Shown here one piece after another: positions 4,471 to 36,100 of a stretch of DNA of 64,000 nucleotides. The DNA comes from Tubiluchus corallicola (taxonomy: Eukaryota > Animalia > Priapulida): the NCBI GenBank assembly GCA_030141605.1, contig JAQGDQ010000121.1:1-64000 (forward strand), given 5' to 3'. The notes under the pieces were generated by a model, which worked only from the letters and a program-made list of their open reading frames with translations, was not told the DNA's origin and made no database searches. The translations under genes were made by a program, and so were the position numbers. Within the stretch, counting starts at the first letter, position 1, and each line of letters begins with the position of its first letter.

Positions 4471-5179
4471 CATTTTTCGTGACATCATGCATTTAAGCTT
4501 TAGTGTAACATCTATGCAAATGTGCTTGATGCGCAAGGGAAGACACCTGCCATTGCACAAACTGTGGTTAGTTTCTGACTTAAGCAATAGCTGTGTTCGG
4601 TTGCAGTTAATTAACTTTCTAAGTTAATTATTCAAATATAAGGAACAATTGTTAACTTTTATAGGCAAGAAAATGTATATTTTTGACAGTAAATTAAAAT
4701 GTAAATCTAACTAAATAAACATAAATTTAGATTGAGTCTAAACAATCGTTCGGTCTTCCTTTAAAAACTGTATGACAGTTTTGTTGCAAGTGTGCAAGAA
4801 TGTTGCAATGCCCTTTGGCAATTTCAGCCAATGAATGTTTGTATGTTATACATTAGCTCATCGTAGTTTTACGTGATAGAAATTACTTATATCATTTTGT
4901 GTCAGAAGTGCAATCAGATCTGTGATATTTTAATAAGCAGGCCTATGTTTGTGTACATATTATCAACTTACTATAAGTGATTGACAATATCTGCATTGAA
5001 TTAGACAAAATTGCCCCTTTAGTAAATGACAAGTTTGAATGATCGTCAATGAGACTATGAGTAAAATTTATAAACTGATTGATACAAGATCATTGAATTG
5101 AAAGTGAAGAGTATATATATTACATATATGCAGAACTGTATGGTCTTGTGAGATACCTTAACACCATAATGTTTTCCAG

Positions 5180-9111: not shown

Positions 9112-12100
9112 TCACGGATCGACGAATGACACCATGATATATCGGATTCCATCTTTAATTTTCAAACCTTCGTGATAGTGAGTCAGCTTGCCAGGGTGCA
9201 TGAGCGACCAGCCTTTACGCGTGTGCAGCAATGTGCAGTTATAGCGAATGAATCTCACCCCTCCACCCTATCAAAAATTATGCAAAATATTAATGTCACT
9301 GTTGGCTCAATAAATTCTTTCTCATGCCATGTAGATTAATTATGGCTCATGTAGAAGAAAAAATGAATCATTAAGATCAATGCACTACTTAAAGCATTAA
9401 CTACACTGCACATTTGCTGCTACTATCATAACTTTTATTGTCCCGACTGGCCACATGACATAATAGTGTCTCAGAAAAACCAGCTTTTAGTCAGACAGGT
9501 GCCATCAAAGCAAATAAGGGACATAGATAAGCCAAAAGATGCTGAAAACTTAAGGTTTCTAATTTTTAAGATACTTAAACCTGTCACTTACTGTGCTATT
9601 TAAACTGCATAATTATGGTAAACATGCCAAAATCAAATTTTAAAAAAAAATTAATATAGGTTTTACATGTCAAATGTAGACCTGTGTTAACTCAAATGTA
9701 GATTTAGGTAATTCAAATGTATTAAAAAATGTAATAACAATGTATTAACGTCCATACAAATAGTTGCAAATTAATTAAATATAATAAAAATTGATGCTGC
9801 CGATAGCACCATGATCATAAAATATAATTTTAATTTGGTTTTATCTTTTTGTAATTTGCCCTTAAATGAGTTAATTACCGATTTATTCAAAGTACCACAA
9901 CTACATTTGACTTACCTAAGTCACATTTGAGTTACCAAAACACATTCGAAATTCCTATGTCTACATTTGACTTACCTAAGTCACACTTGAACATTCCTGT
10001 GTCTGCATTTGACGTGTAAAACCTATACCGTGCATGAATTACTGACCACAATAAAGTAGAACTAAGCTCAATTACCCATGATTTCATTAATTTGTGACAG
10101 ATAGAATACAAAACACTTTGTCATAAATCATATTTCACTGCCTTTTGTTTGGTTTTTATATTCTGTTGTCTTGCAAAAAGCAAGCTTTAATCATGTTGCA
10201 AAAACTATTATTCACACCAACAAAACTATAAATACATATAAATATATACAGTGAATGGTCACTAATATCACAGTTTGCAATGTAGTGTGCAACTTCCATA
10301 ATTTCAGCTATTCACATGACAAGACTGAAGAAAAGGCCAAGCTTTCTGGGAAGCTAGATTTATTTTAATGTTTGTGAAAAATGTTAGAAGGATTTAGTAA
10401 TAAAAGTCTGGTAATTCTTCGTGTAATTAGTAAAATCACTAGGAAGTCGCGATCATTTCACTCTTCGGCACTCCCATTTCGAAAGCCAATTCTTCTACAA
10501 ATGTCATTCATTCATTGGCTGAAGCAAAGCAGCACACCATCAATTTCCATCAAAAATATAAGTCTCACCGAAAAGTTAGCTCGCTAATTTTGTGACATTT
10601 TTGCAAGGACATTAAGTTGCAGAAATTTCAGTTAGTTTAAGCAGCACATGCTTACAATAGGAAACGATTAGCCTACGACAAGTCACAAAATCCACTAGAT
10701 ATTTCATAATTTTACAGTGAATGGCGGCTATCACCGTGCCTAAAAATATCCATACAGTGGTAGTATATATTAAATTTAGGCTTTATAGACAGTTTTCCAC
10801 AAATTTCTTTGTTATATTTTTCTAAGTGTAAGTGATAACAACAAAATAGCTGCAGCATGCTAAGTGACTTGTCCTTTCCTTTAATCTATAAAAAGAGGGT
10901 GTCAATGACCCTCGATCAAAATTACCCATTACAGGGCTAGGGGCCCGTCAAATAATTAAAAACTGTGGTCTAACTGAAATATAAAACAACTTAAGAAAAA
11001 TTTGCAGTACCCTATCCTGACAATTTGCCTTTATCTTTCTCGCATCAGCGAAGAACAGCTCTTTATCCTTCTCATCCAAGCTTTAAAAATACACATGGTC
11101 TTTGTAACAACCCTGGTACAGTAATATAATTGCAAAAACAACTTACCGTATAATCTTTTAGATAATTATTGAGAGCCAAATTTAATGTGTACGTCGAAGA
11201 ATCATGATGAGGACGAAGAGAAGGCTGCTCATCTATCTTATATCTAACCACGAAGTTCATGATGGCTTGTGGAGGCTAAGTAACCAACAATATCACATTA
11301 AAATCAAATTTTCACCAGGAATTTAATGCACAAACAATTATATGCATAAACTTAGGCAAAACATTTACAACTTTGTGGTGTTCAAAAGAAAGCACAAATG
11401 TTCAACCAAATCAAAAAGAATGTTAAATGTAAAGCCAATTTCTCTAAAATGTTGATAATGAAATCAAGTACATTTAGAAGAAAATTTTTATGCATATGCT
11501 TCATCAAAAATTTTAAATTTAACTAAAAAGACACACTACTATACAATATGATATTTTCTTATATTAAAAACATGCTGTTCTGCATTGTGCAAGAAAAAAC
11601 TAACAACTAAGAATATTTATCCAACTTATTTCACGGAAGTGCAACACATGTATACATACGGGTATTAATACGCAATCCCTAAGCTTTGAGTCAAACATTC
11701 CAAAGCTTTGTCTTGCAAAGACATTGTTACATGTGAGATATTATCTTGATCAAAGCCTGCAATTGCATATTAATGGTTTCTAAAATGTTTAGCCATGCAG
11801 TGCTGGTATAAAAAGCAATTAATAAACATACTTACATTGCAGCGTTTCAGCAAACTGACGTAGGAAGTGAATTAACAAAATATAAGCAAATGTACTCACC
11901 AAAGCTGAAGCAAAAGCCATGGCAATTAGCTCAGCACTAGTAGCAAAATAAGCACATTATTTATTTTAAGTAATGAGTAAGCTTTAGTAACTGCGTCTTA
12001 GTGTATTACTTGCATGCCACTGTTAGCAGTAATTTGTATTTTTAAAAACCATGGACAGGCACTTTCAACATGGGAAAATTGGGCACGGCTGCATTGGTGA

Positions 12101-15100
12101 CAAAACCTTGGGCACTGGCCAACTTGGGGATGAGACATTTGGGCACTAATGATGACACATATTGGTTATTGCTTTGCTATTGTGCCATGACTTTATTACA
12201 CAAGTATACATATTTCTGTGTTGCACTAAAAATTATGACGTCCAGTTTGTTAAAATTATGGGAATCCTCATCCCATTGTTGCCGGACAACTTTTAAAACA
12301 CCGAACGTTTTTGTAATAAAAGAAATAATTATTTTTGTGAATACAATTATGTAATAAAAGCTGGAAACAACTATAACTAATCTAGCATGTGTAAAAATAA
12401 CGCTACTGAAGGGAGAATTATCATGGATTTAGCAAAGATACATAAATAGTTTTCAATTACTATTCTTAATCTTGATGAAGATAATTATATAGATATTAAG
12501 CAGTAATTTGGCTCGTTAATTGATCTGGTCGTTTTTGATTTGGCAGCTAGAATGTAAACAACCAGATAACGCATTTTGCCAGTTTCTTCTAAAGCATACC
12601 AAACAGTCAATGAGTACAGAATTACGATATAATTCTAGCTGAAACACTAGCTGTGCTGTAACTAAACTTTGGCGTGAATAATTTTTTGTGACTCACTAGA
12701 TATTTTTTAAACAAAATGTTACCATATTTTAATAAAATATTACTCTAAACTTGTGGTTCTTTAACTTCGTTCATTTTTGAAACTACATTCAATACTAAAA
12801 GTTGAAAACCTGAACCTGCAGAAAAATATGACTGGTTAAAAAACTTTTAATTATTCCATCATTATATTATGCACTGCATAAATTTTTAATAAATTTATTT
12901 CAGTGAAGCTACCTTAAAAAATGCTGTGAGAATTAGAAGATAGCCAATCATTAAAGGAAAACTCAAGCTTTCCTGGAAGTTAGGCTTATTTCAATGTTTG
13001 CAAAAATTGATAGGATTTAGTAATAAAAGCGTCGATAAGCACCTCATGTAACTAGTAAAAATCACTTTAAAGTGGCAAACATTTCATTCCACATTTGGGC
13101 GCTCCTATTTTAAGCAGCTATTCTTCCACAATGACATTGTTTAATGACTGAAGAAACACAGTGCAATTTTACAAAAAATTATATAGCTACACAAGAACAG
13201 TGATATTTTTGCTTTGCATGAACAGAAGGTAAGCTGCAGAAGCTTGAAACAGTTTAAGTAGCGTGCGCTTACACAACGCCATGGTGCAAAGTTCACTAGT
13301 TACATCATAATTTCAAGTGAATGGCGGTTACCACTGTGTCTGAAAATTTTTATACAACAATAGTACAAAATATTTTTATTCACATTTTTTTCACATTTCT
13401 ATTTTATATTTTTGTAAGTTAACTGTAACAGTAAAATAAACCCAACATGTTAAGCGACTTGCCCTTTCCTTTAAAAATTAAACAAACACAAAATTAATAA
13501 AAAGATAGGTATAACATAAAGTTTTTGAGGCATCCAAATGTCTCCTGCCCAATGTCTTTGTGCCCAAATGTCCCATGTCCAAATGTCTCGTGCCCAAATG
13601 TCACATACCCTTAAAATATGTCATAGTTACATGTGAAGTGTTTCATACTATTAAGGAATTTGCACATAAAATACAACAGCAATAAGGCAAATGCATATAT
13701 AGTGCCATCTACCATGCAAAACTTGTACTGTTCATAAAAACTAATAATAAGCAAGTTTAAGCATTGAAGTTTAACTTCACACATTAAACTCAGTACATAT
13801 TTCTGTGTTAGTCATGGGAAGCAGGAGTTTACACAGTTACACCATGCGGTACCATGCCTGCTTAACTCACGTCATGGTGATAGCCGATAAAAATCTTCTT
13901 CTGCATTGGCTGATGATAGGTCTTCAGCATGTACAACCACAATCTCTCCAATCCGACTTGATTTAAGTGTATATCGCGTGTTGGCACGTTTTCGTACCCT
14001 CCTTCTAACCTGGGGTCCTGGTAAATCCAAATCGATAAGATGCTGAGCATTAACTACATATTATGAGTCTCACCTATTGGAGGATAGTGAGTCACTGTGC
14101 AAGGTACAGTCTGGGTACTTACAAGCGACACCATGGCCTTCCCTTCTGACAAAAGCAAAACAAAAAAGAGCTAAAAAAGTGGATGCTCATACATACCTTT
14201 TGTGATCAGAAGCACCTTTCATTGAGCATGCATTACCAAAAAGAAAAAACTCAAGACCACAACAAGTGTTTACCATTTTCATAATTGACAGAGTTGCACT
14301 GCATCCTTTTAATTTGTAGCAAACAAATAGAAAAAAAGGCAAGCCGCTATCAGAAAATGAAGAAAGAATAATAAGATACCAAAATCTGCTTAACTGATTG
14401 CTCAAAGTGAAACATCACGCCTAGTACTGTAAACCAGAAAAAAGTGTGAGCTAAATTTTTGCAAATTGAATTTAATGTTGAGTTAATGTTCCGTAAGGCT
14501 CCACTACAGAAAAGCCATTGCCAAGTTAATAACATTTTCTGTACTTAGCAGTGTATATTACAACCAACATTTAACAAAACACTTTTATTACTAGTGTTAT
14601 TTATGCACCTGGAAATTTATGCATCAATACGTCTTTGCAAAATTCGGAAACATGTCCAGCATATATTAATTTTACTTTTTACATTATTTCATTTCACTTT
14701 GAGCAAAACTACTATCTTATAGGTGCTTCAAGGAATCACTTTCATTATTATAATAGCCTCGTCTATCAACTCACATCATCAAAATAACCTGGAAACAATT
14801 TCCGCTGTACAGGCATCACATACGATTTCAGGAACCACAACCAGTGGTCATGCAGGCCCACCTGACGCATGTGAATGTCACGCGTTGGCACGGCTTCATA
14901 CCCGCCTTCAAGACGACTGTCCTGTCCAAATTAATCTAGATACATTAGTAAACCAACACCAGAGTTTTTTCTTACATATGCCAAGAAAAAATCGAAAAGC
15001 ACAACTCCTAACGAGTTGTCAAGAGACGACTACAGATATGTTAGTACAATGCCTCAAAGCAAAGAAACATAACACTAAGACATGCCTAAAAACAACCATA

Positions 15101-18100
15101 CAGTAGCGAGAACAGACTCTAGTAAACCATCTCAAGAGTGAGATAAGAAAATCTTAACATCTGCTCACTGGGAAGGTGCATGGGTGCAGGCATAACTAGT
15201 TACTTACGTCATGATTGTAACCAGCATACATTTTCTGCTGCATAGGACGAGAGTAATATTTGAGCATAAACAGCCACATACTCTCTAATCCCACCTGGTT
15301 CAAGTGAATGTCGCGTGTTGGAACATTTTCGTATCCACCTTCTAGTCTCACATCCTACAGAAGCCGATTTGTGGAGCAAGTGCAATGAAGCATGTAATCG
15401 TGCATATACCAGCCACCATTAGGTGCTAACAAGCCATAACTGACTTGCAATACCCAAACAAAATAGACCTTCATTTGCTCATAAGCAGCATGCAAATAAA
15501 GCTGGTGCTTGTACAAGGTGCTAGTTATATAACCCCTCCACTGCTGATCATTAGAGTGTGACTCACATCCTCATCATAACCAGGATAAAACTTTAACACT
15601 AAGGGCAGGATGTAATCGTACAGAAGCTTCTGCCACTGGTAAAATAGTCCTATCGCAGTTAGGTGTACATCATATGTGGGCACTGGGTCCTGGGATAAAT
15701 AAGCTAAAGTGTTATATAAGGTACATGTGACTCATGGAAAGAAGGTTTACAGTCATTTGTTCAGTTTAGGCCAACAGGATTAAGGATGTAGTTATTCAGA
15801 AAGAGGCTCTGCATAAGTAAGATTACACAGCTGCACTTTGTTACTTTTTAATGCATGTTTGCTAGACTGTATTTTCAAACAAAAATGAAAAAAGTTAAAA
15901 TGAAAACTTGTTAGGCACAACTTTGTCACATCTTTTCTGTAAAAATTAATGATCGTATAAAATTTTTTCAGCATAAATCTTACATTCGAATTACATTTCA
16001 ATACTTTAACTTATTTTAAAAGAAATTGTTTAAAGAAATACTGCTCTCAAATACATTTTGCTTTAAAAATTGTAGTCAAACGTATAAGGAATTAAAGGAA
16101 AATTGAAAGAAAAATTATCAAAAAAAGTAGTCCGCACACACAATTGCATTAAATAGAAGACACAACTTTGAAATGAAGAAGCCAAAACCATGACAGATGT
16201 AAAAACTGAAAGTTAACAAATATAATTTATAAAAAAAATAAAATTATTTATAACCAGACAACATAGCAAAATTGTAATAATCTATTATTTATAATCTCAA
16301 TTTCAAAATTAATTTATTAATGAGGGCATCAATTCTTCTCTAGTTACTGAATTTACTGAAACCAACTTCCATTCAGATTCATCCTAGTTTGCGACTTTAT
16401 CCCTTCATCAATATTGTAATAACTTTTAAATAAGCAGGAAGTGCCTAAGTCAAGAAGCAAATATCAAGAAAAAAAATCAGACTATATAAAGGCGTAAACA
16501 ATTGAGCATAAAATAAAAATTGCATAAAACTTTTTACATATTTTACTATAAAAGTCTTACAACTTGACTTTGTAACAGACAAAACAATAAAATTTTTCTT
16601 TGTAGTGGACATGGGATTTGTAAACCTAGGACTCCCTGTGTATGTAATGCAAAGAATGGAATGCACACGGTTCATATCAAATGGAATTTCCACATAAATA
16701 TAACATATTATGCCACTTTTGTGGTTTCAGTAGATAGCCAATGTGGTGCTCAATGCACGCTAGATAAACTTTACCTTAAATATAACACGCATTTTGCAGC
16801 CTCTCAGACTGATAGCAAAGTCGTACTCCTACCCACTCGGGGTGCCAACCGGCCATATTCCACCGACAAATGGTTAAAAGGAGACGCAATATACCCCATG
16901 GCGACCCAACTTGGCACTCAGTTGGGTAGGGGAGAAAAACAGCCAAGCCGCTGGGTCCCGGTTTTGGACCCCTCCACTTTAGGCCGACTACCTTTAGTGG
17001 CAGAAACCGTTATAGTTGCAAAGAATAATAAAAATAAACCTGGACGGGTGAATGGAAGCGCCGGGGCAGCGCGAGATACCCCGGCGTCGACTTACGGTCT
17101 GTTTAAGGACAAAGAGACTGGTACAACGATAACATTGAATTATCCTGTGCAGGTCAGCGACCGCTGTCCTGTGTGTGCGAAGGCGATTCCCGACTGGAAG
17201 TCGGCGAAATCGCATGTGAAATTATGCCATGGATTGGGCGTCCAGAGGCTAAAATTCCGATGTGTAAAGTGCGAAAAACTGTGGCCATCACTCCAGAGTG
17301 CCTGCAGCCACTACAGGTACTGTTCCACCAGAGTACCTGATGAAGCAGCTCAAGCGAGCGGTGGTACCGAGCCGTCACAGGATGACGCTCACCGCTGTCC
17401 TGAATGTCCCCGAGCCTTTAAGACACACGCGGGACGCCAACAGCATAGAAGGTGTGCTCATCCTGTCGAATATAACAACAGTCTTCCTGGACCCAGGGAG
17501 AAGAGGGCCGACGGTGCAGGTACACTGTGGACGGATGACGAACTCAGGCTCATGGCCGAACAGGAGCTCAAGTTCCACCCCAAAACAAGGGGGCTGGCCA
17601 AATTCCTCCAGCAGAGCCTGCCTCATCGCTCGATTGAGGCCATATATAGTATTTGGAAATCCGTCCGCTACACCGCCGCTAAAATGGCAGTAAGAACGGA
17701 AATCGAGCTGGCCGCCGGCGCAGGCGCTAACGATCCAGCAGCGGAGAGGGGCCCCGCTGCCCACCCTGCTGAGGTCGAACTGGTAGTCGATGAGCCACAA
17801 CCCTGTGTGAGGGCAAGCAGGGACACACCCGGTACGAGGGCAAGCCGGGAAGCACTTAAAGAGAGTATTGAAACCGAAATACGAATTGGGAATGTGCATA
17901 ATCGCACAGACGTGGCTGCTGCTCTGGCATTCGCTAGAGCGGCCTTGGACGGCGGCGATTTGGATATGGCCTTTCAGGCAATGAGCGAGGCTTGGTTCCC
18001 CGAGGATGTACGTCCACAACCAGCCAGACCCCGCCCTGTTAGGCGAGCTCTCGATCGACCCCCGAACCGCCAAGTACGCAGGAGGGAAAGGTATAAGACA

Positions 18101-21100
18101 TACCAGAGACTGTATCAGAGAGACAGACGCAAGCTTGCGAACGTCATACTCGATGATGCACCGCTGGATGTCGAATATCCCCCCATAGACTGCGTCGAGC
18201 AAACCTACATCCAGAGATTCGAGAAACCGTCTCTTCCGGACGACGAACCTATCGAGGACTTCAAACCGTGCGAAGATCCCGACGGCCTCTGTGCCCCAAT
18301 TGCACGCGAGGAAGTGGCCAAAACCTTCAAGGCCATGAAGTCACGTTCGTCCCCCGGTCCGGATAAGGCGGTCACCATGAAGGCTCTCCAGAAGATTAAC
18401 AAGGGCGCGATAACCCTTGTTTTCAAAGTGTGGCAATTCCTACGCGAGGTCCCGAAAAGCCTCAAGGAATGCCGCACCACCCTCCTACCTAAAGGCACGG
18501 AGGGCCTTCAGGACGTTAATAACTGGCGCCCTATCACAATCGGATCTCTACTGCTCAGGTGGTATGCCAAGATTCTGACCTCGAGAATCCAGGCAAGGGT
18601 CAAGCTCAACCCACTCCAAAGAGCCTTCCAACCAAGGGACGGCTGTTCAGAGAACCTGACTCTCCTGAACACCGTGATTCGGCATGCCCGAGCAAGTCAC
18701 AGGGAATTAAACATCGCATTTCTTGACTTAGCAAAGGCATTCGACACGGTACCTCACACCTCGATCGTGAGGGCAATGCGAAGGTTCGGCCTTCCGGGAC
18801 AGGTTCAGGAGATCATTGGGGATATGTACACGGGTGCTGCTACACGGATATCGACGCCGGAAGCAAGTACTCGTCGTATCGAAGTTACGTCTGGTGTCAA
18901 GCAGGGATGCCCGCTATCACCCTTGCTTTTCAACCTGGTAATCGATGAACTGATCTCAAAAGTCGGTTCTCGATTTGGCTATGAGATCGAAAATCACCAA
19001 GTGGCCATAGTTGGTTTTGCCGACGACCTAGTCTTGATATCGAACACCAAGCATGGCATGGGCAAGTTGTTGGAGACAGCACAGGGCTTCTGCACAAAGA
19101 GGGCAATGGCACTTAACGCAAAAAAGTGCAAAGCCATGCGACTGGTCAAGGCATACCGGCGAAGTGCTATGAAAGTGATCGTAGATCCCACATGGAACAT
19201 CAGCCAGACTCCTATCCCGATGTTGGGAGTCGCCGAGACGTACAAATATCTCGGAATACCGTTTGGCACAAGAGGGCGGCCCGCCATGGGCACAGATTCT
19301 CTTAAAACATGGCTGCTAAGAGTGGAAGGGGCGCCACTCAAACCTCAGCAGAAGGTGGATATGATCAGACAATACGTGATTCCGCGTCTGACATACCGCT
19401 TTCGTATATGCGAGGTTCACATGAATGGCCTCAAAGGTGCCGATAGGCTAATACGATCAAGCCTAAAACGCATCCTCCACCTCGCGGTGGATGTACCGAA
19501 TGCATTTTTTCATGTTCCAATGAAAAAGGGAGGACTAGGGTTTTCTTGTCTGGAAGAGGATGTGCCTCTGATGAAGATCAAGACCCTCAGTCGTATGCAA
19601 GCCTCACCAGACGCACTGGTGAGCATGAGTGCATCGGCACCGGTGTGGAATAAAGAGCTGGAGTGGGCCAAGAGGGTTACTAACCTCGAAGCCTACAGTC
19701 ACGGGCGAGATATTAGCCGTGCAAAAAGGGAGATGGCCCAGAACCATCTAAACTCGTTTTTAGCGAAAGCACATGGGAAGGGCTTTGCAGCCGTATCTGC
19801 AAACCCACTGAGTACTCACTACCTGCGTAGCAGCACACTCCTGAGGGGGGGTGATTATATCTTGGTTCTCAAGATGATCACCAACTCATTACCAACCAGA
19901 GTTAACTCCACGAGAGGAGCACCCAATGCAATCAGGAGATGCCGTAGGTGCGGGAGACACGCAGAGAGTCAGGTTCACGTACTTCAACAGTGTAGCTCGA
20001 TAAAAAATGCCGTATCCCGACGGCATAATGCACTGTGTGATGTGCTCGCCGAAGCCCTCACCGCCAGGGGCTTCAAGGTCGTCAGGGAACCTTGGTTCGA
20101 GGTAAACAGAACAAGGTACCATCCTGACATCCTGGCGACCAAAGATGGTCATACCTACGTTATCGATCCGACCATCTCGGCAGCGAGCAACATCGACCCG
20201 CTAAGGGCCAGGTGCAGGGACAAGGCCCTGAAGTACAAACCGATCCTCGATGCCGTCAAACGGCGGTGCGGCTCTGCCACTGCCTCGTCGCACGGCATCT
20301 GTGTGGGCTACCGCGGTGAATGGGCAGGTGGTGAGAACGATAAGATCCTTAAGACCTGTGGTCTGCTGGGAATCAGGGCCAAGCTGATTCGCTCAGTGAT
20401 AAGGGGCTCATGTATGATCTGGAGGAGATTCCTGTCCTGAGTCGGTTCCTATGATGAGGACCATAGGCACGGTCGCGTCCTGCACAGGATGATAGGGAGT
20501 TAATAATAACAATGACCACGACCGACACAGGTGATACCACCGAAGCCTGTGAAATTCTGAGGAAATAATGAGCTGACTGATTTTAATAAAAAGACTGTGA
20601 TGACTTCTACAAAAGATTATTAGTGTCATCTTCAATGGTAATAGGGATGTATATTGTCTGCCATCAATATCATTATTAGTGTTATGACCATTAATAACAA
20701 AGTTTGTTTTGTCTTGTACTACCTGTACAAGAAATACACATATGTTCTTTTATGTAAATCTGCCCTCACATAAACTCATATTTGTTGAAATGCAGAAAAT
20801 ATAAGTTTGTAGGTGCAGTTTTAGAAGAAAGTTCTTACCTCGTGAGAGCCACTTGACCACTTTCCAAATGTATTCACTTCTCTCACCAGGTCATCACAGA
20901 ATTTTTCTGTAGTGAGTGGAAACCAATAAACATCTGGACAAGGCTGCATGAACAAAGTAAGTTTAAAACTGCATAAGAACTAACAAAAACAAGTAGTAGT
21001 ACCTTCCCTCACAGAATGAGCTATAAATATAATAAATACAAATGCTAATGTGATATCAGAAATAAAATTGCCCTACACATCAAATTTTATAAGCAGTTCG

Positions 21101-24100
21101 GTACACTACAAGCCAGCATTCGATACTTATTAATATACTAAAATTGATGGTCATGACAGGCCACATTGGTCGATTTTACAGCATCACCCAAACAGTTAGA
21201 CAGGCAAGACGCTGTGCGAAAAGCGAAAATGTCACCACTCAGTTATTCCTCCCTCTTTACCCAAGTTTATAAATTAAGTATCTTTGAATAAATATAAACA
21301 TAACCTTTTATGCTGGGGAAAGTTTGGTAAAATGTTCAGAAATATGCAGCTATTAATAGGAGTTCGTTTATACCTACAATTAATTTGGTTATTTTACTAA
21401 GCGTAAAGATAAAACAAATACCTGCAGTATGTATTTATCTGTGGGGAAGTCTGTAGTACCAGGAGGGCTAAGCTCTGGTATTGGTGTATCATCTTCAAGC
21501 GCTTTGGCATACCACTTATGAATGTACTTTTCTTCCCAGTCCTACAAGAAAAAATGTGTTTGTGTTAACTAAAATAAAAAAAATAATTTTTCGTACAAAA
21601 CAACAATGTAGCAGCATTATAATACAGGTAGTATGAGTTTAACAACAATTTGAAAAAAAAAACTAACAGTAATAAAGAAAGGCACTTAAAAGTTTGCCGT
21701 AATTCTTATCAAACACAGATAAGGAAACCCATTTGCACAGCACTAGCAAACAAGTTCATATAACTAACATTATTTATGGAAATCCTTTAATATATGACAT
21801 TAAACTAGTAGAGATGTCTCAGTCGCATTTGGCATGCATATTATACATGATACATCCTTCTTCAATAGCTCGAAAACCAATTTGGAAGATGAAACTGCCC
21901 AGAAGCTGCCCAGTCACTTGTCCATTTCCTGGGCAGGCTTGCCAATGCTCAACTTAAGTTTAATAAGCACATTTCCCATGGAAAACACTGCGATCACTCG
22001 GGTAAAATTATTAGCAATGGTAATGACTGCAAGGCAGCATATTATTTGCCATACTTAACTCTTTGTCATTCATCAAAAACTTCAACATCTGATCAAAAAC
22101 AGTGAAGTTCAAATTTTGCATAAGAATTGTGTCACATGATTAGTTTCTAAGATGTTTACAAAAAAGATGTAAAATTACTATCTAAACCCACAACAAGAAG
22201 GTGATCATTGCAACAACAATATAACAAAAGAAAGTCGCAAACACAAAGTATTTTCGTGTAATGTGAAAGAGAGGCAGCAATTTTAGGGAAACACTATAAG
22301 AATGTACTAACTTATAAAAACAGGTATGGAAAGTTATTATAGTTATAGTTATGTATATAAATATACATCAGAAAATTTAAAACCAATAATAAACTTTCAC
22401 TACTTACTAATTGATTTTCAAAGATCATGTACAAGTCGGGTGATTTGCGATTTGTATCAAAGCCTTCAGAATTTAGCATATGACCAAAATGCACACGGTT
22501 TGTAACATACATAAAGTGGTGCTGGAAAAGAAATGACATGATGTCAAAATTAAATGATTCATAGACAATACAATGCTTATCATAAAAGGACAGAAAAAAC
22601 TTTTGGTGCAATCAGTTCTGATATTTAAATGAGTGAAATATTGCCATCTAAGCTGTAATCCACAAAAATTTTGTAAAAAATTTTCTCAGCTGTAGATAAA
22701 ATCGTTATAAAATTAACTAGCTTTTTTCTTTATAGCAGTGATGGACACTTCTTCTGGAGTTAAGACTCCAGTATAATTCATCTCTCATGAGAACTCGCAT
22801 GATGAAATGGAAACAATCTTCGCAGATAGTAACTCTAACTTGTAAACGTAAAATTACATTTAATAGAATATAAGAAATAGACGCAAAATAATTTCAAGCT
22901 GTAAATACAAATACATTAATAACTGTATTTTGGTCACATACATAAATAGTTAAATACAGTAACTGACTTCAGTCAACAAAAAATTGTGTGCTTACATGTT
23001 GTCTCATATGTTCCCCAAATGCCATGTCTGCATCCAAAAGTTTGTAGATATAAGGCTTCAATGGCGAAATCTGTTTTACTCGATCACCTCTAATCATGTA
23101 GCATGTGTGAACCAGGGCAATGTTCCACACACCACTGAAATGTAGAAGTTTATAATTAGAAATAGGAGGAGTTGAAAATCTATGATAATATGAAAACACG
23201 TCAAAGCTTAATAATGTGACGTCATTCAAAAAAAGACTGGTATGAATAATTTTATATGAAAAAATTTGCTTGAACAATATGATGACCTATGACACCAAAT
23301 GTACATAAGGTAGCTCACCCAATGCAGAACATTCAGCTAGAACAAATGTAAAAGCTGGCTCCTCCTCTAAAGTGAACACAATTATCACAGGTAAACATAG
23401 TAAACAGAGAAAACAATGATGAACTAGAATGGAAGTACCAATGTGCTTGGATCCAGAACATCCCATTTGCTCATTTCTTGTAAAGTTAATGGTTTCAATA
23501 AGAAACTCATTGGAAGCATTTACTGTTGTCACGGGAAACAGTTTTTCAGTAAAAATTTAGAATACCCATTGCTATGGCAGATCCACTTATACATTAGAAT
23601 GAAAGAATTTCTAGCAATGTAACAATTATAGGGCAGATCCATTTGGTCAGCAAAGGGTGATCAATAAAACAGGCATATTTTGGGGAAGGGAAAAATCGGG
23701 CTCCAATACGGTGATAGTTTTCAAAGACAAATGTGACAACAACAATAACAACAGGACTAAAAGCTTTAGAGATCTCGCCCTTTGTGCCGGATGCCCAAAT
23801 CTAAGCTCCAACAATGCACAAACTGAACTCACACATTTGTATGCAGCTACAATATACATATATATATATATATATAACACACAATAAACATCACTTATAT
23901 CACAAGTACCAAATAATTATAACAGAAAAATTACTGTATGAACGTTAAATGCTTCTGGATTTCAAATTAATTCGAATGCAGCAAACATGGCATAAAAAGA
24001 AACTTAAACACAGTGAACAAAGTCGAAGGTATCATAATTAAATAATCAGAACCACCCACATACAGGCTGTCAATGGAAGCTTCTCCTATTACCACATGCA

Positions 24101-27100
24101 CTTAAGCCGAACGGGCATAACCATATTGACTAAGTAAAGCAATATTATTATGAAGTTAGGCTACATAATCTATCGCGGCTAAGCAGCCAGAACAAAACTA
24201 ATGTTCTTAATAAAAGTATTCGGTATATGCAGAGGAAGTCATGCAGATTTTCTCAGGGAAGACACTACACAGATATTGGCAGAAGTCGAATTCATAATGA
24301 AAGTAACACCAAGTTTGACCTTATAAAAAAGCTACCAGATATGTTTTCACGCAGAAAGTCATATAGAACCCATCACAGAAGTACAAACGCACTGAAATAC
24401 TATACAATTATCTCAGACCTTTACCAAAAAAGGGCAAACAAAACAAAGTATAAAGTAAATTGAATAGCACCAACGAATTATCAGTAATGAAGCTACCTAA
24501 AATTTAAACCGAAAACACCTACAAAGTCTGCAGAAGCCATATAGAAACCATCACGTATGGAAATAAATAGAAACTATCACAGGGAAGCCATGTAGAAACT
24601 TAGAAAAACGACCAGAGAAGAAGGTTCGAAACTGTGGAAGAAAGAACACATGTGGAAACTCGGAGTTTGCTAGTATGCTCATTTCCACATAAAAACCCTT
24701 GAATCCTCATAAATTTATTGAAGAAACCATCTCCTTGCACAACCTTCATGGAAATATAGAAGTGTGCAGAAGTTTCACAAAAACCATGTATTAGTTCTCA
24801 GCAAGAAAGCTAAGCGCAGGAAGCCATACAGAGAAAGCTACGTGTAGAAACAGATAAAGAAAACATATAGATAACCCCAGAAAGAATATTATGCAGCCAT
24901 CCACAGTTCTCAAAACAATAAAAGCCGAACTCAATAGGAGAAAAGTGTACTAAGAAATGTCCTTTTCTTAAATCAGGCCCTAAAGAAGCCCTACAACACT
25001 CAAGGAGAGTACACGCTATTTTCCATGTTTAATGAGGCAACTCAAGGATATTCACTACTTCGTTTTTTAGATATTTTCACATTACACAATCAGAGTTTGA
25101 ACAGTATACATTCAATGATTAGTGATGTCAATCGGACTGTTTAGGTACACATGCTAATTATGGGCTAATTATAATCTTGTCTCGTACAGTTAAAATTTCT
25201 TGAATTTGGAAGATTTTCCATGCTAATTATTACTATTGCGACAACACCCATTCAGGCGAATTACCAGTTTTATTATCTGTATTAATCAGATGGTGATGAA
25301 CCTTTTAATGACACAAGGGTGAATGGTTTGAGCGTCATGTTCTGCAAACAATGGTCCAAAAAGTAATGACACTAGAAAAATGATACCTCTAAGATTATAA
25401 CACTCTGTGCTTACTTAGTTTTAGATAAACGTCAAAAAAACTTTGACTGTCCAAGGAAAGAAGCTAAAACATACATTGCAAATCTTTTATCAAGTTCTGC
25501 ATTTCAACCTAAATGGGCATGCGACGCAGCACACCCTCACCCCACGGGAAATGAGTTCTTCTGCAGCATGCAAAGATTCATCTGGAGAATCCGTAAAGTT
25601 TCTCCAAGCTGAATTGACGCCAGGAGTGCGATTATGAAGTGAAGGCAGCAAAGAGAGCGAACTGCGTAGGATACATGTTCCCAGGTAAGAATTTTACAAT
25701 AGAATAATTTCAGCTTTTGAGCAAAGATGTTATCAGTAATTAATTAGTGATCGAATTAGTTTTGTCAAGTCAAGTTTACACAAGTTTTTGTTGAGAACTT
25801 ATGGTTTCTAGAAAAAGTTTATTATCTTGTAACTGCATTATTAAAAATTATAAAAGCAAAAATCAAAATGTGCACATATTTAAACAATTAGCAACTAACA
25901 AGTGAACCTGAAGTGGTATTAGAAATTTTCTTTCTAAACTGCAAAAACAGATCTATGCGAAATTAAAACGCGCTTTCATTAGCAGTTACATCAAAGGACT
26001 AAAATTTATTTGGAACTTGGATACCGCTGTCAGAAAGCATTACTATTTTACATCATTTAACCGAGCCAAAGTTCTGCCAAAAGAAAAAGTTGTGTGAAAA
26101 GAAAAAATAGTTTCAAAGATAAAAGTAAACACCATAGTTTTTGTAAGGTATGTGTGTGTGTACAGTTGGATATCATAACATGTGTTAATTCACATAATAA
26201 ATGCCTTAGTGCGGAAAAATATATAGTGTTCAAAGAAGTATTTTGTTGAGCTACAAAATTGACACGTTTTTTTAATAAAGCAACATTTTACTTGCTGGAA
26301 AAGCATAATGCAAAAACAATAGAAATCTCTCCCTACATAATTTAAACACATGACAAAAAAAATTCAGTGGGAGATAGCAGCAACACACTGCTTATCATGA
26401 AAATAAGGTGGCATATCCAAAGGCACTTTTTAACTAGCTCACGAAAATGACAACCTGAACAACATCGAAAATTTGTCTGTAAAGAAACCTGGCAAACTTT
26501 TGTGGGCGTATTCATGTCTATAAAATGTACCAATTAATTATCATTTGTGTGTTGAAATGCTTGTGGGTTTCTAGGCTAAAAAATGTATATTCCTAACGTT
26601 TTTAATGTTTAAAAATGGGTGAGAGCAGTGTAAGAGCCATGTGCATTGCTTTGCCCAGACCTATAACATTCTTCAGTGTTCTCCGTGACTCCTATGAATA
26701 AAACACGAAAAAGGCGCCTGTGACATTACATCCCTCAAATTTACAGGAAAATGATTCTGAGAAAACGCCCGTTTTGAGCTCTATGCTTCTACGTCCTGGC
26801 TTCGCGATATCATAAAATTTAAATTGTAAATATTTGGCGTGGAAAACTTCAATTGGGAACAAATATGTATGTAATGGTGAACTAGTGGAAAACATGACGC
26901 AGTAAGAAAATTTACTGCTAACGCGAAGCTGTTTTGTCATAAATATCAGCGAAACCAGATCAAGTCGGCCGTTGAATAAACTGCTGCACAACACATTCCC
27001 TTTCAATGCTCCTGGTTCAGCCTGGTTGTTTACGTTTACCGGATTTTATTTACAGTTTCTCAACAACCCCTACAAGACGTCTCCCATAAAACGCGTGCTA

Positions 27101-30100
27101 GATTTGATCAAACAACTATCTTAATAGGGGTGGGATGAAATTCTATAGTAGAAGCATTTCTGACGTTTGACAAATTAGAACATAGTTCATTATCAATGGC
27201 CGAAATTTCAACCAATAAATAATCCACTGAGGTATTATTTAGACAGTTACGTAGGTCAGCTGGATGTAGTACTGAAGTAGGATTAGCGAACTGTCTGCTG
27301 TAAGCTTAGTGTTTGTAATTGCTGTCTATGTTTCTGTTGGGTATAGTCACCTACTTTTATGCGATATATTTGTTTGTAAAGTGACAATAGCTACACATTT
27401 ACTTACACATCTGTATCCAGAACAATAGCAATTGCATGGATGACCAAGTTCACCATGTATATGTAAATTTGTTCATATATTAATAGTATTTGGACAATTT
27501 AAACTGTATTTGGAATTTGCCCAACAGTTATGGTTTTTTATCAATAAACGAATAATTGTTAAATGTAATGGCCAAATGTCGCATTGTGTTTATTATACAG
27601 TAATGCTACACTATTAGTAATGGTGACACAAACGGATAATATTTCATTTTAATTCAGATTTTCTCAGAAGCGGCTGTTTTACTATTTCACATGTAGTGCA
27701 TGTACAGTCATTGCAGGCACTGTATCTTACGGGCAAACCTGCGCCAGTATAAGGCATCAAAATTTAACGGGCTCTCCCTTGCCCATACCCCACGAAAAAT
27801 CAAATTTACATGTCATGACAAGGGTGTTGAGGTAATTAGTGTAATTATCATAGTTTCATACCAACCACAAAACACAGAAATAATAACACTAAAAGAAATT
27901 ATTGATCAATATGGCATCTCAGTTTTCACAAAACACAAGTGTTGAACTGAGCTGAAAACTGAATGTGATAAAATCTCAGAATGTCAGAAATGCACACTAA
28001 CAACCATGAAGCAAATCAGGAAGTTCCGAAAGTCAATCAAATGAAAGTTCCAATTTTCAGATTCACAGGAGGTTAATTAAAGGCAATGACAAGCTGTGAT
28101 TCGATTCCACTACCTAAAGTTTATCATCTCTGTGTCCTGGCATATAAATGAAATCTTAAGCGCTTCTTGAATTAAGCCTGTTGGTTATTTGAACAAGTGC
28201 AACTCAAACAACAGTATAATGCGGATGAAACTGCAAAGTCTGATCCGAGGAAAAAGTAAAAACAAAAGATGACAGACAAAATGAAAGACCTTGTTTGTCT
28301 AATTTCTTTTTTCCTGCGATCAATAATTTAAGATCTGATGACAAAATAACTTCATCTCCAGAAATACCCAGTTTGCCAGTGTAAGACTAAGTGTCTTGCA
28401 GATAACATCTAAAATGATTACATTGTACAGTGAGAGCGCATGTCCCGCACGTGTAGTAAATGATATGCTAGTTTGCCAAAAATGCTCATTAAATTTTGTA
28501 TAGTGCAAGTCAAAGCAAAAGTAGCTCTGCCTGTTTTTTAGTGCAATAACAGAGCTAGTAATAGTAATTTTTGCATAAAGTCGTGACGATAATCGACAAG
28601 AAAAGGAAAGCCATTTTAATAGTGACAACCCACCAGAATAATGGGTAATCATCCAACGGTCAACTATACATTAATTTCTATCTACACTATCATAACTACT
28701 AGATGTGGATTACACCTTAGCAAAGTCTGACTAACAACTGACTACATACACTATAGAATTCCTGCCACCTATTCTAATTCTTTAGGTTTGTTGAGAACAT
28801 GGCAACCTACACACCTTGAAATAGCATTCCAACTAAATTTTTGTTACGTTGCACCATCTAGCACAACATTATGAAGTGTGGCACATGGTTTATTTCTAAG
28901 CTACTGTAGTTCTATGTAACCAGATGTACACAGTATTTTTAATGAGAATGTGAATGATTGTACTGTTTATTTATTTTTCAGACTGAGCCATACGCACATA
29001 GCAACTGCAAGGTTAATAAAATTAAGAGACTAACACGGACGAATTGATTTCTTTCCATAACTTAAGTTGGCAAAAGTGTGTTAACTACTAATAATACACA
29101 GAAACAGCAAAGTGAGGATAACTCAGATAACTTTGCACTTACTATAATAACAGAAGCAATACTCAAAGAAGTTGTGATAATACAGAGTACTACGGATGTA
29201 ACTGAAAAATAATTGATGTTGTAGCACAAGTGATTCACAATTATTGCTACAACAAATTTTTTGCTACTGTACATAGAACAAAGGTATAAAAATTCGGATA
29301 TAAAGGAACTTTAACATGGTCAGTTCAAAGAAAGAACTTTCAGTGGAAGTGATGCTTGTGGCGGTACTGCTTTATCTGATGATGGGCGTAGTGTTCTCAG
29401 AAAGGCCAAGGACGATGGCAGCAAGATACAGAGATGAATGCCGAGGCTCGGTAAGAATGCACTGAAATAACAATATAGCATCACTACCATCATTACTGAA
29501 ACATAATTTCTATGAGGGAATGTTGCAAAACAGGTGCAAAATTTGTGATCACTGGCAAGAAATCCCTTTTTATTGTAGACAAATAATAGAAATATCATTT
29601 TTTTACAATTACATGCTACACGTTTGCTTGCACTCAAATAGGTATCTGTCAAAAACAGAATGTGGCTGACTTGTTAAAGGGGAAGGAAAGAGATTTTAAA
29701 GTAAAGCCCAAAAAACTTTCCACACAAAGTTGCATTGCTTTGCATTATGCTTACTTGTTTGAAAGACATAAGTTATTGAAAAAAAATTCTTCATAGTTTA
29801 AAATATTCACAAGTGGTAAGACATCATTGTATCACCATCCCAGGGTACACCACTGCTTTACCAAAAAACTTTTTTCAAACGACCTACCAGAAAAATGGCT
29901 GCACTTAAAGAACATCAGCTCTTTATGCAGTATGTTGCATAAAATTTCAGAGCTTTTTTGAAAGAGTTTTAAACCTTTATTTATGAAAAGTGTTTTCTTG
30001 CCTTTTAAAGATAAATCAGAGGTAAACCAATTTTATCTAAAACTCGAAAAAAATGGTTTGCACAATATGCTGCAAAATCACCTATGCAGCAAATTGAAGA

Positions 30101-33100
30101 ACTCTGTTCTTTTCAGCAAAGGCCGGCAACAATTGTCAGCAGTTCTGTGTGGGCACAAAGCTTTTACATAGGAGACAAAATCAAACTTATGTGCTTTGCT
30201 TGTGGTCGCCCTCGTCCAAAGATTACCTGGTACACAGACGGACAGGAGATAATATTCCGTCCAAACATGAGAGTATGTGAAGTAGAATATTAGCATTTAG
30301 TTTATTGTATAACTATAGAATCATCATAACTATCTTCATGACTTTCACTGTTAGCAACACTATTCTTCATACAGTGATTGCAAGTGCTTATTTCATATCA
30401 ATTGTAAAGTTGTAAATAGTAAATATTCTGAACAGCAGCTCTGACAACAATGAACATAAAATCCAGCTTACACAGAATGATTGATATTCATGCTAAACTT
30501 AATAACAAATGTGAGAGGTCAGTAATACAATATACTGATCAGGTAAACGTAATCTCAAGGTTGCTGATTCGAATCTAATCTCTGGCGTTCTGACTTGATT
30601 ACATCCTCAGATAAGATAGCTTGCTAATGAATCTTCCATAAAGCCTTCAATCTCTTTGCTCTCAGATGGGAAGATGACATGGGACTTAAATGAATACTTA
30701 ATGTTTATTAAAGGGCAAATCACATTAAATCACATATTTTTTTAATGATGACAAGCTTTCCGTTTTAGGTAACAGAGTACAGGTACAACCGAAATAAAAT
30801 TAAGAGCTATCTAGAAATTGACCCAGCAACAGAGTCCAATGCTGGAGAATTCATGTGCCGGGCAAGCAACCGTAATGACTACGATGAACGGATTATTACT
30901 ATGACGGCATTGTACCCAAACGTACAAGGTAATACTGGATAAACACGATAACTGAAGAGTGAAAAACTAAAAATTTTAAATTTTAATCGCTAGTATTTCT
31001 CAAAGTCTAATGTGGTTAGAATACGTCAAATAATACAACATACTAACTGAGTGAGTGAAGAGTGTACAAACCTACTTAGTATATTTACTATTATTATTAA
31101 TATTTTTACACTCTAATATAATGACTATATATTAGCATGTAATTATGTCGGAAGACATTAATAAAATAAAAGGTATGTAATTAATATGACTGAATGTGTG
31201 AGATTATTTCTTGCCTCATTTCAGTGAAAGCAAAATAATGTTAGGTCATCTGATAATTAAAATACATCTCTGTAAATATTAAAGAAGGTTAGGTAGGAAG
31301 GAGCTGAATGTTGATTGCAGCAAATAAAAACATAAACAATTAAATAAAAAATGCAAACATCTGAACTTGTGCCTAGGAGTTATTCTGCCAAGAAGATTAA
31401 TTAAGCCAGAATCAGGCTGCCAATTTGCTGGAAGCTTCTACACAGAAAAACACACATATCTAAACATATAAAAGGCTGACGGTGAACACAAAACCTTGCA
31501 CTTAGTGCAAAACCTTAGCACTTAATTAATAACAGATTTTCAAGATAAAGGCAAGACTCCCGCTGAAAGTTTTTTTTTCGTTGGAATTCTTAATCAGAAC
31601 AACTTCAAATATGCTTAGTCACAGGCAGCAGTAAAAGCTACAGCAGTAGGCAAATGGCTTACAAATGTTTGGGTTCACGCTAAAATGGTGTTCCGGCGGA
31701 TCTCTGACTTTCCAGCCACTAATTTTCTCCATTAACAAACACTTGTACAGGATTTTCTTAAATTGCCTTTGTCAGTTAACAAGAGCCCTATTGACTAACT
31801 TTTGAAATCAAATTTGGCTAAAAGGAAGAAAAATTTACATTTTGAAAAAACTTGTGAAGAAAGTTTATGTTTTTTTCTTCCCGTTGGTTTAGCTTATATC
31901 AAAAGTTTACTACTAGTGATCCACCAACTTTCAAGTCAAATAATAAAATTTATTCACAAACTCTCTTTTATACTGAGAAAAGAAGTAAAATCCACACAGA
32001 AGCAAACTAACAGCAGTGGGAAAGCATACCAGTCTTAGTTACTGTTTGTTTTTTAGGACATGCATAAAATGCAAATATTTTATTATCTCAAAACTTTAGT
32101 GGAACACAACTGACGTAAATTAAAGGATGACAATTTTCCCATCAAACTGCATTAAAATACTGGGTACGATCGTATTAATAATAACAAAAATATGTACGGT
32201 TAAATAGGCATAATCAAGTAATTTAAAATGCCCCCTTAATACGTTAAATTTGCTTTCGTTTTAGTAACTATGATTACATCAAAAATTAACAATACTAATG
32301 TGCACTAATTTCATTTTGCACTTGCATTCTTTTAAGCTAGAAAAATATGACAATGTTAAAACTGTGCTGTAGATATAGTTCATTATGATTAAATTTTTGC
32401 ATATTGGATTATATTTTAAGTGAAATACTAAATGCTACTTTTTGATTGCTAATGCTGGAATAAGATGACTAACAACACGGTATGTTACCCTTAAGTCTGT
32501 AGAACACAATGCATGCTAATTGTGCATTTTAACTTGCAGGATGATTTACTGGAACTAGACTGGTACTGGAATAACCTGACTAACAACATGCTACCTCACA
32601 AACTGCTATAAAGATAGGCATGAAAAGAGCTGATAGAGTTGAAAAAAGACGAGCATATCATATGGCTCGTTTTCATTTTTCTTTTTTGAGAAAACACAAA
32701 AAGGAATAAAAGTTAATGTTACAAAGTGTTACACTGAATCAGCCTAAAGATCAATCTTTTAAACTGTCAGTGTGTACAAATATAGAAAATTTATGAGAAG
32801 GTTCAATGTGTACGTATAAGAGTCAAAGCTTTATCGTTTAAACAGTTTAATTTAAACTTCAGATGGTGAAGTATGAAGCATTATCAGCTGGCTAAGTAGT
32901 TACAGTAAAAATATTTGAATTGCGCAAAACTTTTAAATTTTGAATATCAATCAATTGACACTAATAAGCAAAATCATTTTTATTACAAATTTTACACCAG
33001 AATCAATTTCACCTGTTCAAAAAGTTAGCGAAAATAAAAAAATGAAATCTGAATAATTCTTCATAAACTTACATTTTTCTTTTTTCCACGATGTCTACAT

Positions 33101-36100
33101 AATCTTCTGATCGAGCATAAAAGCTTTCCTCAGTCAGTGCACCCCAAAAGTTTGACCACAGCTTGCCAGGTCGTACCAAAACTGGACCTAATACTGGCCT
33201 GCAAAATACGAGATACATATAGCCATAAAGTTTGTTAGCAAAAGTATTTGTGCTTTATTCAATAAGCAATGTTAAAAGGTAAGAAAAATTACTTTTCTAA
33301 GTGCTTAAATGGCATAACTTTTAAAGCACTTAGTCATTGTCAGAAAAATGTTAGGAACTACACTGTGTTCTATCCAATAATATTAAAACACATCTTTTCA
33401 GTTGAATTTTCCACCATCTGACTTGTATTTCATATACGCATAAATTTCAATCATGATTGCATTACTAATAACAGATTAGTTTATGAATACATAAAACCAC
33501 AAACAGGTTATTTGGTCAACCTTAAATAGCGTGAAAGCCCCGTCATAACGGTTGACAATTATGAAGACCCACTTGTGATGCTGCGAAATAAATTCATCGA
33601 TGATCATGGCAAAATAAAAAAAGAATTGCTTCTTCATTGCTGTCATTGGCTTCTTTCCTACTGTTCTACAATTCCTAGGAACGTGGTTGCATCCTCACAA
33701 ACAAACAAGTCCGAAATTAAGGCTGATGCAAGTATGACCATATTACGTCTACTACGTCTACAGAGACATTAGCACGATGGAGTAAATCTCGTAATACGAT
33801 TACACCATCCAAACCAAGCCCATACTGCATTTCTATGCTCATCTACTTCTTCCGCGATCTCATGAATATGACTTTGAATATGTTCAAAATGTTTCTGTGA
33901 CCATAAAGACCTTCAAGATTATAATGCATTTCTAACATTTCAACTGCGCCGTTACTAAGAACTAGAAGACCTCGGTTCTAGGGCTAATTTTCAAGGTCGC
34001 AGAGAGCTTTTCTGTGAAGGGACAGGGGTTGAAAGGGCAGTAAAAATGGTTAATATAAAAAGTTGTATTGAACTATAGTCAAAAAGTAAACTGTAAAAAT
34101 TTTGTTGCCATTGAATGTTCAGTGCAACTTAATGAAAAACTGAAAACGTGCCCATTCATTGTGGAAAAAATTATTATGCAATATTTTCCAAATAAAAATA
34201 TATTGCAAGATGTATATTAGATGGCAATAACGGGCAAGAAAATGTCGATGCCATAAAAACCTAAGGTGAGGTGTCCAACCGGGAGATGACATAATTAATC
34301 TAAAACGCGTTAATGTATTACTACTATCTAATGTTACAAAGCCCAGAAAGAATTGGAAAGAAGCTGCACACTGTCAGAAGACCCTGGCATACTATCTATA
34401 GGCCATTTTAGCATTTAATTTCAAACGGAAAACTTTTTAATATGAATTTAGAATGTCCTCAGAAACAAGCAATGAGTTTAGTACTGTTTTAAACATAGAA
34501 AACAAGAATCAATAAATTTAGTTTAGTAAACAAAAATGTTCAAAACCAAAATAGGTATACAGCAATCAACAGAATCAGATAAATACGGTAGCTAACACAT
34601 CACAAAGGTTTTTCTATATGAAATGAAACACTACCCTGATTCGCCGTGGTATATACTATTAATTAATCGTACTTACAAATTTTGCTCAATCAGTAACTGG
34701 ATTGTTTGCGGATTGACAAGCTGTGCTTCTGAGTCGACAACAAACAAGAAGTCGCAATTCTTCTCAACACAGTGATCCCTGTTTTAAAACAAAATATAAA
34801 TTGTACATTTAAAGCTAGAATTTAAATGAAGCTAAAAAATTAACAGCAATGATTCACAATTAAAATGTAAACCATAAATGCTACTGTTAATGCACTGCTA
34901 TTCCACTTGAAAGCTCCACAATGCATTACACGAAATGTAGTACAAATAAAGGTGCAGATTACCTGTACAAAAAAGGACTGACATACATTAATGTATTGGT
35001 GATGCCTATTAACACATTTGGGACGATGGAATGAAGTCACAATCAACAAATTTTTGAAATTATAACCTTGTCGAAAAGGAAAAAACGTGCAAAAGGTAGG
35101 ATAGAATCTGCATTTTAAAACTTTTCGACATAACATATGTCTCTAACAGATTTTGTAGCCCAGGATGTTTAAAACGTCAATTCCTATACATAACCAAAAG
35201 ATGAAAACTGCTGTTGGTACTCAACAACATTTTGGACCAAAATAATGAAAGGAATTTAGAAAAGTCATTTTGCTGCAAAAAGTGACTATACCCTACTCAA
35301 AAAAAATGCTGTTTGATGTTTTGGCCACAGATCCCAACATTTCTCGTAAGAAAATTCCCAATTTCACTAAATGCCTAGAAACGACGTAAAGCCAAATTTA
35401 AAGAAAATTATATTATAAGGGCAAACAATATGAAGTGCATAATGTCAACAGGCATTACTTACAAAGCTGCATTTCTTGCAAGCCATTCAGTAACTCCTTC
35501 CTCAGCATTTATAATCCTAATGCTCCTATACTGACTGCCATATTGTTCAATAAATTCCGCAATCTGAGGCACATGGAATTCAACCTGAAATATTGATTAA
35601 TGTTAATTATTTACACATTAACTGTAACAATAACTGCTAATCATTAATTTGTAATAGCCTGCATAGCTAACGATTAGTAAGAAAAACTAATTTAATGGCT
35701 TGGTGTATTTTTTGTTAAAAGCTTAAATCCGGTATATTATTTTAGGCAAGTAATAAAAAGATACAGTAAAACAAACTAATAGCATAAACTGCTAGAAAAA
35801 GGTACTAGAAATAAAATATATAAAAACTTCAAAACAATAAGACATCTTTCAAAAGTAATGTAATGCGTAAACACTCACATTAGACTGGACATAATCCAAG
35901 CTTCAACAACCAGCAGAGTAAAGACAAAATTATAGAACAGAACAATTTCCAAAGAATATCTGTTCATCTCAGTGCTCATCTCTAGTAGATAATCAAGTGT
36001 TACTAATACAATATTCTGCCTGCCAGTCCATAATGCTTTCACTGTATAAAATTATATTCCCGACAAAAAAGATACGCAACTAAACCCATGTGTAAAACTG

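Follow-up and report, generated by a model that had tools for sequence, protein, structure and literature searches.

Four tandem exons for the active-site segment of a lysyl hydroxylase gene in Tubiluchus corallicola, probably used one at a time, and a candidate RNA pairing switch

Introduction

How can a single gene supply different versions of an enzyme's active-site surroundings on one catalytic core? The question is raised by a lysyl hydroxylase (LH) gene of the PLOD family in a stretch of 64,000 nucleotides (nt) from Tubiluchus corallicola (assembly GCA_030141605.1, contig JAQGDQ010000121.1, positions 1 to 64,000, forward strand), which we call the window. Between its constitutive exons 17 and 19 lie four paralogous exons, here A, B, C and D in the order of transcription. 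According to a 2026 review (PMC13382579), vertebrates vary LH through three genes, and what governs substrate choice among the LH enzymes is an open question, for which the review points to the capping loop and to structure surrounding a conserved active site. An original prediction, made from the letters of the window, held that the four exons undergo mutually exclusive splicing and diversify the active-site cap, with possible tuning to different collagen substrates or tissues. Our follow-up leads to a reading that we put at roughly 70%: the gene carries four intact tandem exons for the segment equivalent to residues 597-645 of human LH3, D is spliced alone, A, B and C are likely chosen singly in its place, and competing RNA pairing is predicted to steer the choice.

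Four intact copies of one exon

The gene product is a full GT-AC-LH protein and a homologue of LH3, with 49-53% identity to animal PLODs across ~720 amino acids (coordinates in Table 1). The iron triad of the jelly-roll core, HxD...H, is encoded in exons 19 and 20, aligns to homologues without gaps and lies outside the variable array. Exons A to D are each preceded by AG and followed by GT, are stop-free and have phase 0/0; the predicted array at 13871..15689, with exons of 123, 147, 147 and 147 nt, was borne out, as were the flanking exons ending at 20839 and starting at 11275 (20839-20943 and 11147-11275) and the three helix sequences quoted for B, C and D. Every single-exon form (4/4) has an open frame to the natural stop, encoding 714 amino acids with A and 722 with B, C or D, the signal exon excluded. 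When a profile built from the cap exons of other animals was run over the six frames, its matches were the four copies (E 7e-11 for A and ~1e-26 to 7e-26 for B, C and D); the next match had E 2.2, and no fifth or decayed copy was found in this search.

The four copies are old, intact tandem duplicates under purifying constraint. Their age follows from a pairwise nucleotide identity of 50-70% and from near-saturated synonymous sites combined with restrained amino-acid change: in 6/6 pairs the proportion of nonsynonymous differences (pN, 0.14-0.41) is below that of synonymous ones (pS, 0.64-0.99). Between B and D, 37 of 49 residues are identical, with different codons at 22 of these, and the two are sisters in the tree (support 99/91). 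Across all four copies, 15 of the 41 shared columns are invariant.

Two sequencing runs gave matches to the locus, X1 (kind unrecorded, perhaps the source sample) and X2 (RNA by guess); neither is recorded as RNA. One X2 contig of 551 nt reads exon 17-D-19-20 through three GT-AG joints, those around D being 20838-14016 and 13871-11275, and skips A, B and C. Because it is ~93% identical to the window, with 39 other letters over ~550, the contig comes from a divergent population or a near relative. Eight of the changes fall in D, and all three of those listed are synonymous. Of the junctions that mutually exclusive use would produce, 17 to D and D to 19 are thus seen, in one contig; no X2 contig covers A, B or C, and no spliced contig with any of these, and hence no 17-to-A, 17-to-B or 17-to-C junction, occurs among the X1 and X2 contigs, which drop rare forms, so that this absence is not evidence of silence. 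At ~99% identity, X1 contigs account for A, for the greater part of B and C and for stretches of intron; the three exon changes listed are two synonymous ones, one in A and one in B, and a Ser-to-Asn change in B. That the array is an artefact in which the assembly placed haplotypes in tandem has a negligible probability, given copies only 50-70% identical to one another and X1 contigs that match three of them, and intron stretches, so closely.

The variable protein segment

Exon B aligns to human LH3 ungapped (E 5.5e-12), which places the exon at Asp597 to ~Lys645 in the numbering of PMC6082870, and searches with the variable exons match LH3 chains. PMC6082870 gives the LH3 capping loop as 590-610, with Arg599 as a substrate mimic, names His595, Asp597, Asp611 and His613 as ligands of a second iron, and describes a dimer pocket shaped by Phe639 and Tyr642. 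According to PMC9453210, residues 640-646 contact the gate of the partner subunit, and Asp597Ala or Asp611Ala raises uncoupled activity 3-5 fold and coupled activity ~1.5 fold. The original prediction had assigned the exons to this LH3 segment, together with ligands of the second iron. The mapping stands; the His595 equivalent is kept, in the upstream constitutive exon, and the variable exon begins only at Asp597.

B, C and D all retain Asp597, Arg599, Asp611, His613, an aromatic residue at 639 and Tyr642, matching the loop and the second Fe2+ site of human LH3/PLOD3 (PDB 6FXK family). Over 597-610 they differ from one another at only 1-2 of 14 positions (598 and 606), compared with 11-17 of 32 over 614-645, which argues that the part varying among them is the helix and dimer-contact loop and not the cap. 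Judged from the LH3 structure, the iron-locked gate (Asp597, Arg599, Asp611, His613) would be kept in all three. By analogy, the changes in the helix and in 639-645, which line the dimer pocket and contact the partner's gate, likely tune gating or dimer behaviour.

Exon A differs in kind. An in-frame deletion removes eight residues including Arg599, and the equivalent of Tyr604 is missing; the Asp at the exon start and the equivalents of Asp611, His613 and Tyr642 are kept. No upstream in-frame acceptor that would restore 147 nt to A was found. Going by the residues, only A alters the cap and B, C and D keep a near-identical one, so the notion that the array diversifies the cap holds for A and fails for the other three. 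Form A loses the Arg plug together with the greater part of the loop and would be, by analogy with LH3, the least self-inhibited; missing the segment by which the active site is plugged in the human enzyme, it would make a less gated enzyme. One-at-a-time choice among the exons would yield four enzymes on one catalytic core.

The same exon in other animals

The cap exon occurs twice in tandem in seven arthropod models among the fetched proteins, and in 4 of 20 clusters (at most 15 members considered in each) annotated isoforms exchange precisely this one, namely in barnacle, brine shrimp, copepod and damselflies. Metagenome loci carry two tandem cap exons in 22 of 72 cases, and three or more copies, or a cap-less one, in none of the 72; many of these loci are near-identical, and 16 distinct pairs are left when they are pooled with the protein models. 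These comparisons indicate that a two-exon version of the cap exon is common in insects and crustaceans. In the insect and crustacean Plod genes (XP_043236665.1/XP_043236666.1, XP_065582274.1/XP_065582276.1, XP_059089132.1/XP_059089133.1) the exon, its boundaries and the tandem arrangement are the same as here, the copies are swapped one for one, and position 606 of the second copy is mostly Ala or Ser, as in C, where it is Ala. Those genes have two copies, whereas the Tubiluchus gene has four, including a cap-less one within the array; a single copy is present in the proteins compared from vertebrates, urchin and acorn worm. The intron between the paired cap exons of one insect metagenome locus (L020, 8147-8186) is only 38 nt long, which makes steric exclusion possible, unlike in the array described here.

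The likeness of C to the arthropod second exon can be read in two ways. C scores +18.5 for the second-exon class profile, for which left-out second exons were positive in 15/16 cases, first exons negative in 16/16, and other animals' single-copy exons negative in 30/31, the exception being a garbled model. C also groups weakly with pancrustacean second exons (90/86); this grouping vanishes without site 606, and Ala606 is present also in single-copy insect proteins. A clade of B, C and D is not rejected (p 0.58) and has the higher likelihood of the two. On these data shared ancestry with the arthropod pair and repeated invention may both be entertained. The animal itself is likely outside the arthropods: the PLOD tree sets the Tubiluchus protein beside tardigrades and outside Pancrustacea with weak support (80-84), a pancrustacean placement not being rejected (p 0.25). 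The Pro-Pro start of exon 19 is found in protostome proteins and here, and is absent from the deuterostome proteins compared.

Cap-less forms similar to A exist in brine shrimp (isoform X3, XP_065582277.1) and barnacle (KAF0306266.1), with a shortened loop, Arg599 lost, Asp-Pro before Val607 and HxD kept. Their cap-less exon has its own alternative last exons, whereas A shares exons 19-20. A scores 90 and 99 against the two, values that 88 and 60 of 287 ordinary cap exons reach; its resemblance to the cap-less exons of crustaceans does not exceed that to ordinary ones, and convergence is possible. When the cap-less isoform of brine shrimp was used for a region search, no further cap-less representative appeared among the 120 matches listed, whose 90% clusters hide isoforms. 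A representative search with A gave 33 hits, 15 of them of a repeat type; the 18 of PLOD type were all capped. The fold of the brine shrimp cap-less isoform (TM 0.78 to LH3, confidence 50-70 around the loop) is uninformative on A.

That A is decaying is part of a wider alternative, in which only D, or D and one other copy, is used and the rest are dead or rare duplicates. D alone was found spliced, the branch leading to A is very long, the loop that A has lost is one that animals conserve, the 33 representative hits include no cap-less sequence close to A (18/18 PLOD-type hits examined are fully capped), and the weakest acceptors belong to B and C (10 and 8 pyrimidines; constitutive exons 9-15). 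We consider this unlikely: synonymous sites are near saturation, yet frames, both splice sites and key residues are kept in all four copies; the acceptor of A is of constitutive strength and its deletion is in frame; cap-less forms with an intact HxD occur in the brine shrimp isoform and the barnacle model; and rare forms are dropped from contigs.

Other parts of the LH domain have been duplicated as well. In ten fish models the next exon, which carries HxD, is duplicated and the cap exon is not; fish PLOD1 thus also has tandem homologous exons in the LH domain, but of the catalytic HxD exon. Brachiopod and ribbon worm PLOD isoforms (P0125/P0070/P0126 and P0128/P0129/P0127/P0089) are of equal length and swap the last exon and one inner exon, and two last exons are present at one metagenome locus (L046). 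In tick and spider the isoforms vary outside the cap exon; one spider model (P0173) has an extra, strongly diverged 34-residue copy of the helix part of the cap exon. A set of intronless PLOD-like genes (L060-L070), several with a G+C content of 22-29%, probably belongs to giant viruses or protists.

Predicted RNA pairing

What could hold the choice to one exon? All four exon lengths are divisible by 3 and the inner introns of the array measure 212, 286 and 757 nt, so that neither decay nor steric hindrance enforces exclusivity. We looked to RNA structure and found an 80-nt element before the D acceptor with three predicted partners (Table 1). The helix with the A donor has -25.5 kcal/mol, a value reached by 1 of 150 shuffles, and the best of 17 other donors gives -18.5. 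The two other partners, in the A-B intron and just behind the B donor, overlap on 14119-14140 of the element. The score for a shared element is -56.1 against -45.1 +/- 3.2 in shuffles (0/50, in a test set up after the pairs were seen), the A-donor and A-B-selector helices nest in one fold (3/315 shuffles), and the minimum-energy structure computed for the 1,881-nt region includes the B-selector pairing; in the ensemble of that region the three pairings are partly formed, with 8.5, 9.1 and 12.3 expected pairs.

The pairings suggest a mechanism. When the element pairs with the A donor and the A-B selector, A would be hidden, B and C looped out and D chosen, a nested fold that fits the D-only contig; pairing of the element with the selector behind B would displace this D-favouring fold. 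We give about even odds to the proposal that such a competing-pairing switch before D steers exon choice. Similar systems with docking sites and selectors are Dscam exons 4, 6 and 9, the 14-3-3 cluster and serpent (PMC4691838); as in them, two intron segments here would compete for one element. The predicted element differs in lying inside the array, before the last copy, and in that it would also mask a 5' splice site.

A dock directly behind D was rejected as a candidate, 381, 133 and 301 of 427 shuffles being as good. An Rfam scan of 9000-23300 gave a chance match only.

The most direct rival to the switch is that exclusive splicing is real and the pairing fortuitous, the choice being made by splicing proteins together with weak acceptors. 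We hold this to be a substantial possibility, somewhat short of an even chance. It gains from all-against-all duplex scans made blind, which were unexceptional (3/10 and 1/7 shuffles reach the best), and from a single X1 change in the element that makes both helices less stable (one goes from -25.8 to -22.0 kcal/mol, the other from -36.8 to -35.6 kcal/mol). It loses from the concentration of the signal, since three of the best seven distinct 40-nt pairs fall on the one 80-nt element and one is at a splice donor, and from the shared-element test with its post hoc design.

Table 1. Mapped and predicted features of the lysyl hydroxylase locus and other features of the window
Feature	Position	Strand	Remarks
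Whole PLOD/lysyl hydroxylase gene	9112..43783	-	18 mapped constitutive coding exons and the four-exon array; signal-peptide exon unmapped
Constitutive exon 17	20839..20943	-	3' end codes first part of capping loop, incl. His595 equivalent; spliced to D in X2 contig
Exon A	15567..15689	-	123 nt, cap-less, 8 residues shorter than B/C/D
Exon B	15208..15354	-	147 nt, Asn606 type with full cap; sister to D
Exon C	14775..14921	-	147 nt, full cap, Ala606; resembles second exon of insect/crustacean pair
Exon D	13871..14017	-	147 nt, full cap, Asn606 type; only copy found spliced
Constitutive exon 19	11147..11275	-	HxD iron ligands; in X2 contig
Last exon 20	9112..9267	-	distal His region and stop; in X2 contig
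Predicted switch element	14071..14150	-	55-130 nt before D acceptor; complementary to A donor, segment behind A and segment behind B
A 3' end and 5' splice site	15557..15582	-	predicted 15-bp (base-pair) helix with 14071-14096
Predicted selector, A-B intron	15430..15472	-	pairs with 14100-14140, -36.8 kcal/mol
Predicted selector just behind B donor	15165..15196	-	15165-15193 complementary to the element; pairs with 14119-14150, -25.8 kcal/mol; competes with A-B selector
PLOD exon 16	21422-21541	-	in linker before LH domain
Non-LTR retroelement	~16800-20580	+	open frame 16568-20440
Nested Ig-domain gene	29315-30939	+	inside PLOD intron, opposite strand
CR1/L2-type element	541-3100	-	truncated
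Single long exon	5162-6394	+	C-terminal UBX domain
G-protein beta subunit gene	55346-64000	+	runs past window end

Other features of the window

Exon 16 of the PLOD gene is ~17 residues longer than in homologues; an alternative in-frame donor was looked for in it and none was found. The intron before exon A holds, in antisense, an intact-looking non-LTR retroelement with zinc fingers, a reverse transcriptase (Pfam E 7.5e-36) and a restriction-like end, which we take to resemble R2. It does not lie in rDNA, has many diverged copies in X1, and showed no target-site duplication when one was looked for. The nested Ig-domain gene presumably resembles two-Ig proteins of the ImpL2/zig type. In the CR1/L2-type element the first frame is coiled-coil and the second encodes a PHD-endonuclease.

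Discussion

Mutually exclusive use of the four exons is supported by the D-only contig together with the one-for-one swaps in annotated crustacean and insect isoforms, and in this respect the original prediction is partly shown. Several observations weigh against our reading as a whole. There is a single spliced contig, whose RNA status is guessed and which is ~7% diverged, and no transcript found contains A, B or C; exon lengths and inner introns impose no exclusivity by themselves; and some database models carry both arthropod copies in tandem. On the side of the switch, blind scans are unexceptional, the targeted pairing tests were designed after the pairs had been inspected, one X1 change weakens two helices, and the pairing model leaves the choice of A or C unexplained. 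A layout with one selector per variable exon and a dock outside the array was not found: no significant dock was seen before A or far behind D, and no selector for C.

In an alternative reading, to which the tandem models lend weight, the four behave as cassette exons of which several may enter one transcript (A+D or B+D, say), and the protein is lengthened accordingly. Any combination keeps the frame, and the predicted pairings bring upstream donors close to the D acceptor. We consider joint inclusion very unlikely, since the one known transcript carries a single copy, annotated isoforms swap equal lengths, and two copies would, as inferred from LH3, repeat a core helix of the domain.

A bolder version of our reading would make A a natural ungated lysyl hydroxylase, active, devoid of the Arg plug, exempt from self-inhibition by iron and able to take substrates that are barred to the capped forms, and would see in capped Asn, capped Ala and cap-less forms an ancient ecdysozoan repertoire of this worm and crustaceans, picked by a donor-hiding RNA switch, so that one gene does the work of three vertebrate genes. 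Taken together, these propositions strike us as doubtful.

The original prediction knew of no such cluster for PLOD. We likewise found no description of alternative PLOD cap exons in a search whose scope did not include subscription journals and supplementary exon catalogues, which may list the arthropod pair, and the main texts of PMC9741552 and PMC3303723 make no mention of PLOD. Where the claim gives way is in public arthropod annotation, in which a duplicated cap exon pair is already present. What is new is a cluster of four, found in an animal that is likely no arthropod, the presence of a cap-less member in this cluster, and the candidate pairing mechanism.

The locus offers four natural versions of the segment on an identical core, one of them a loop deletion, so that what the cap and the dimer-contact helix do could be tested by exchanging a single exon. 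With the cap exon duplicated in insects and crustaceans, and other exons of the LH domain in fish, brachiopod and ribbon worm, the LH domain emerges as a repeated target of exon-level diversification.

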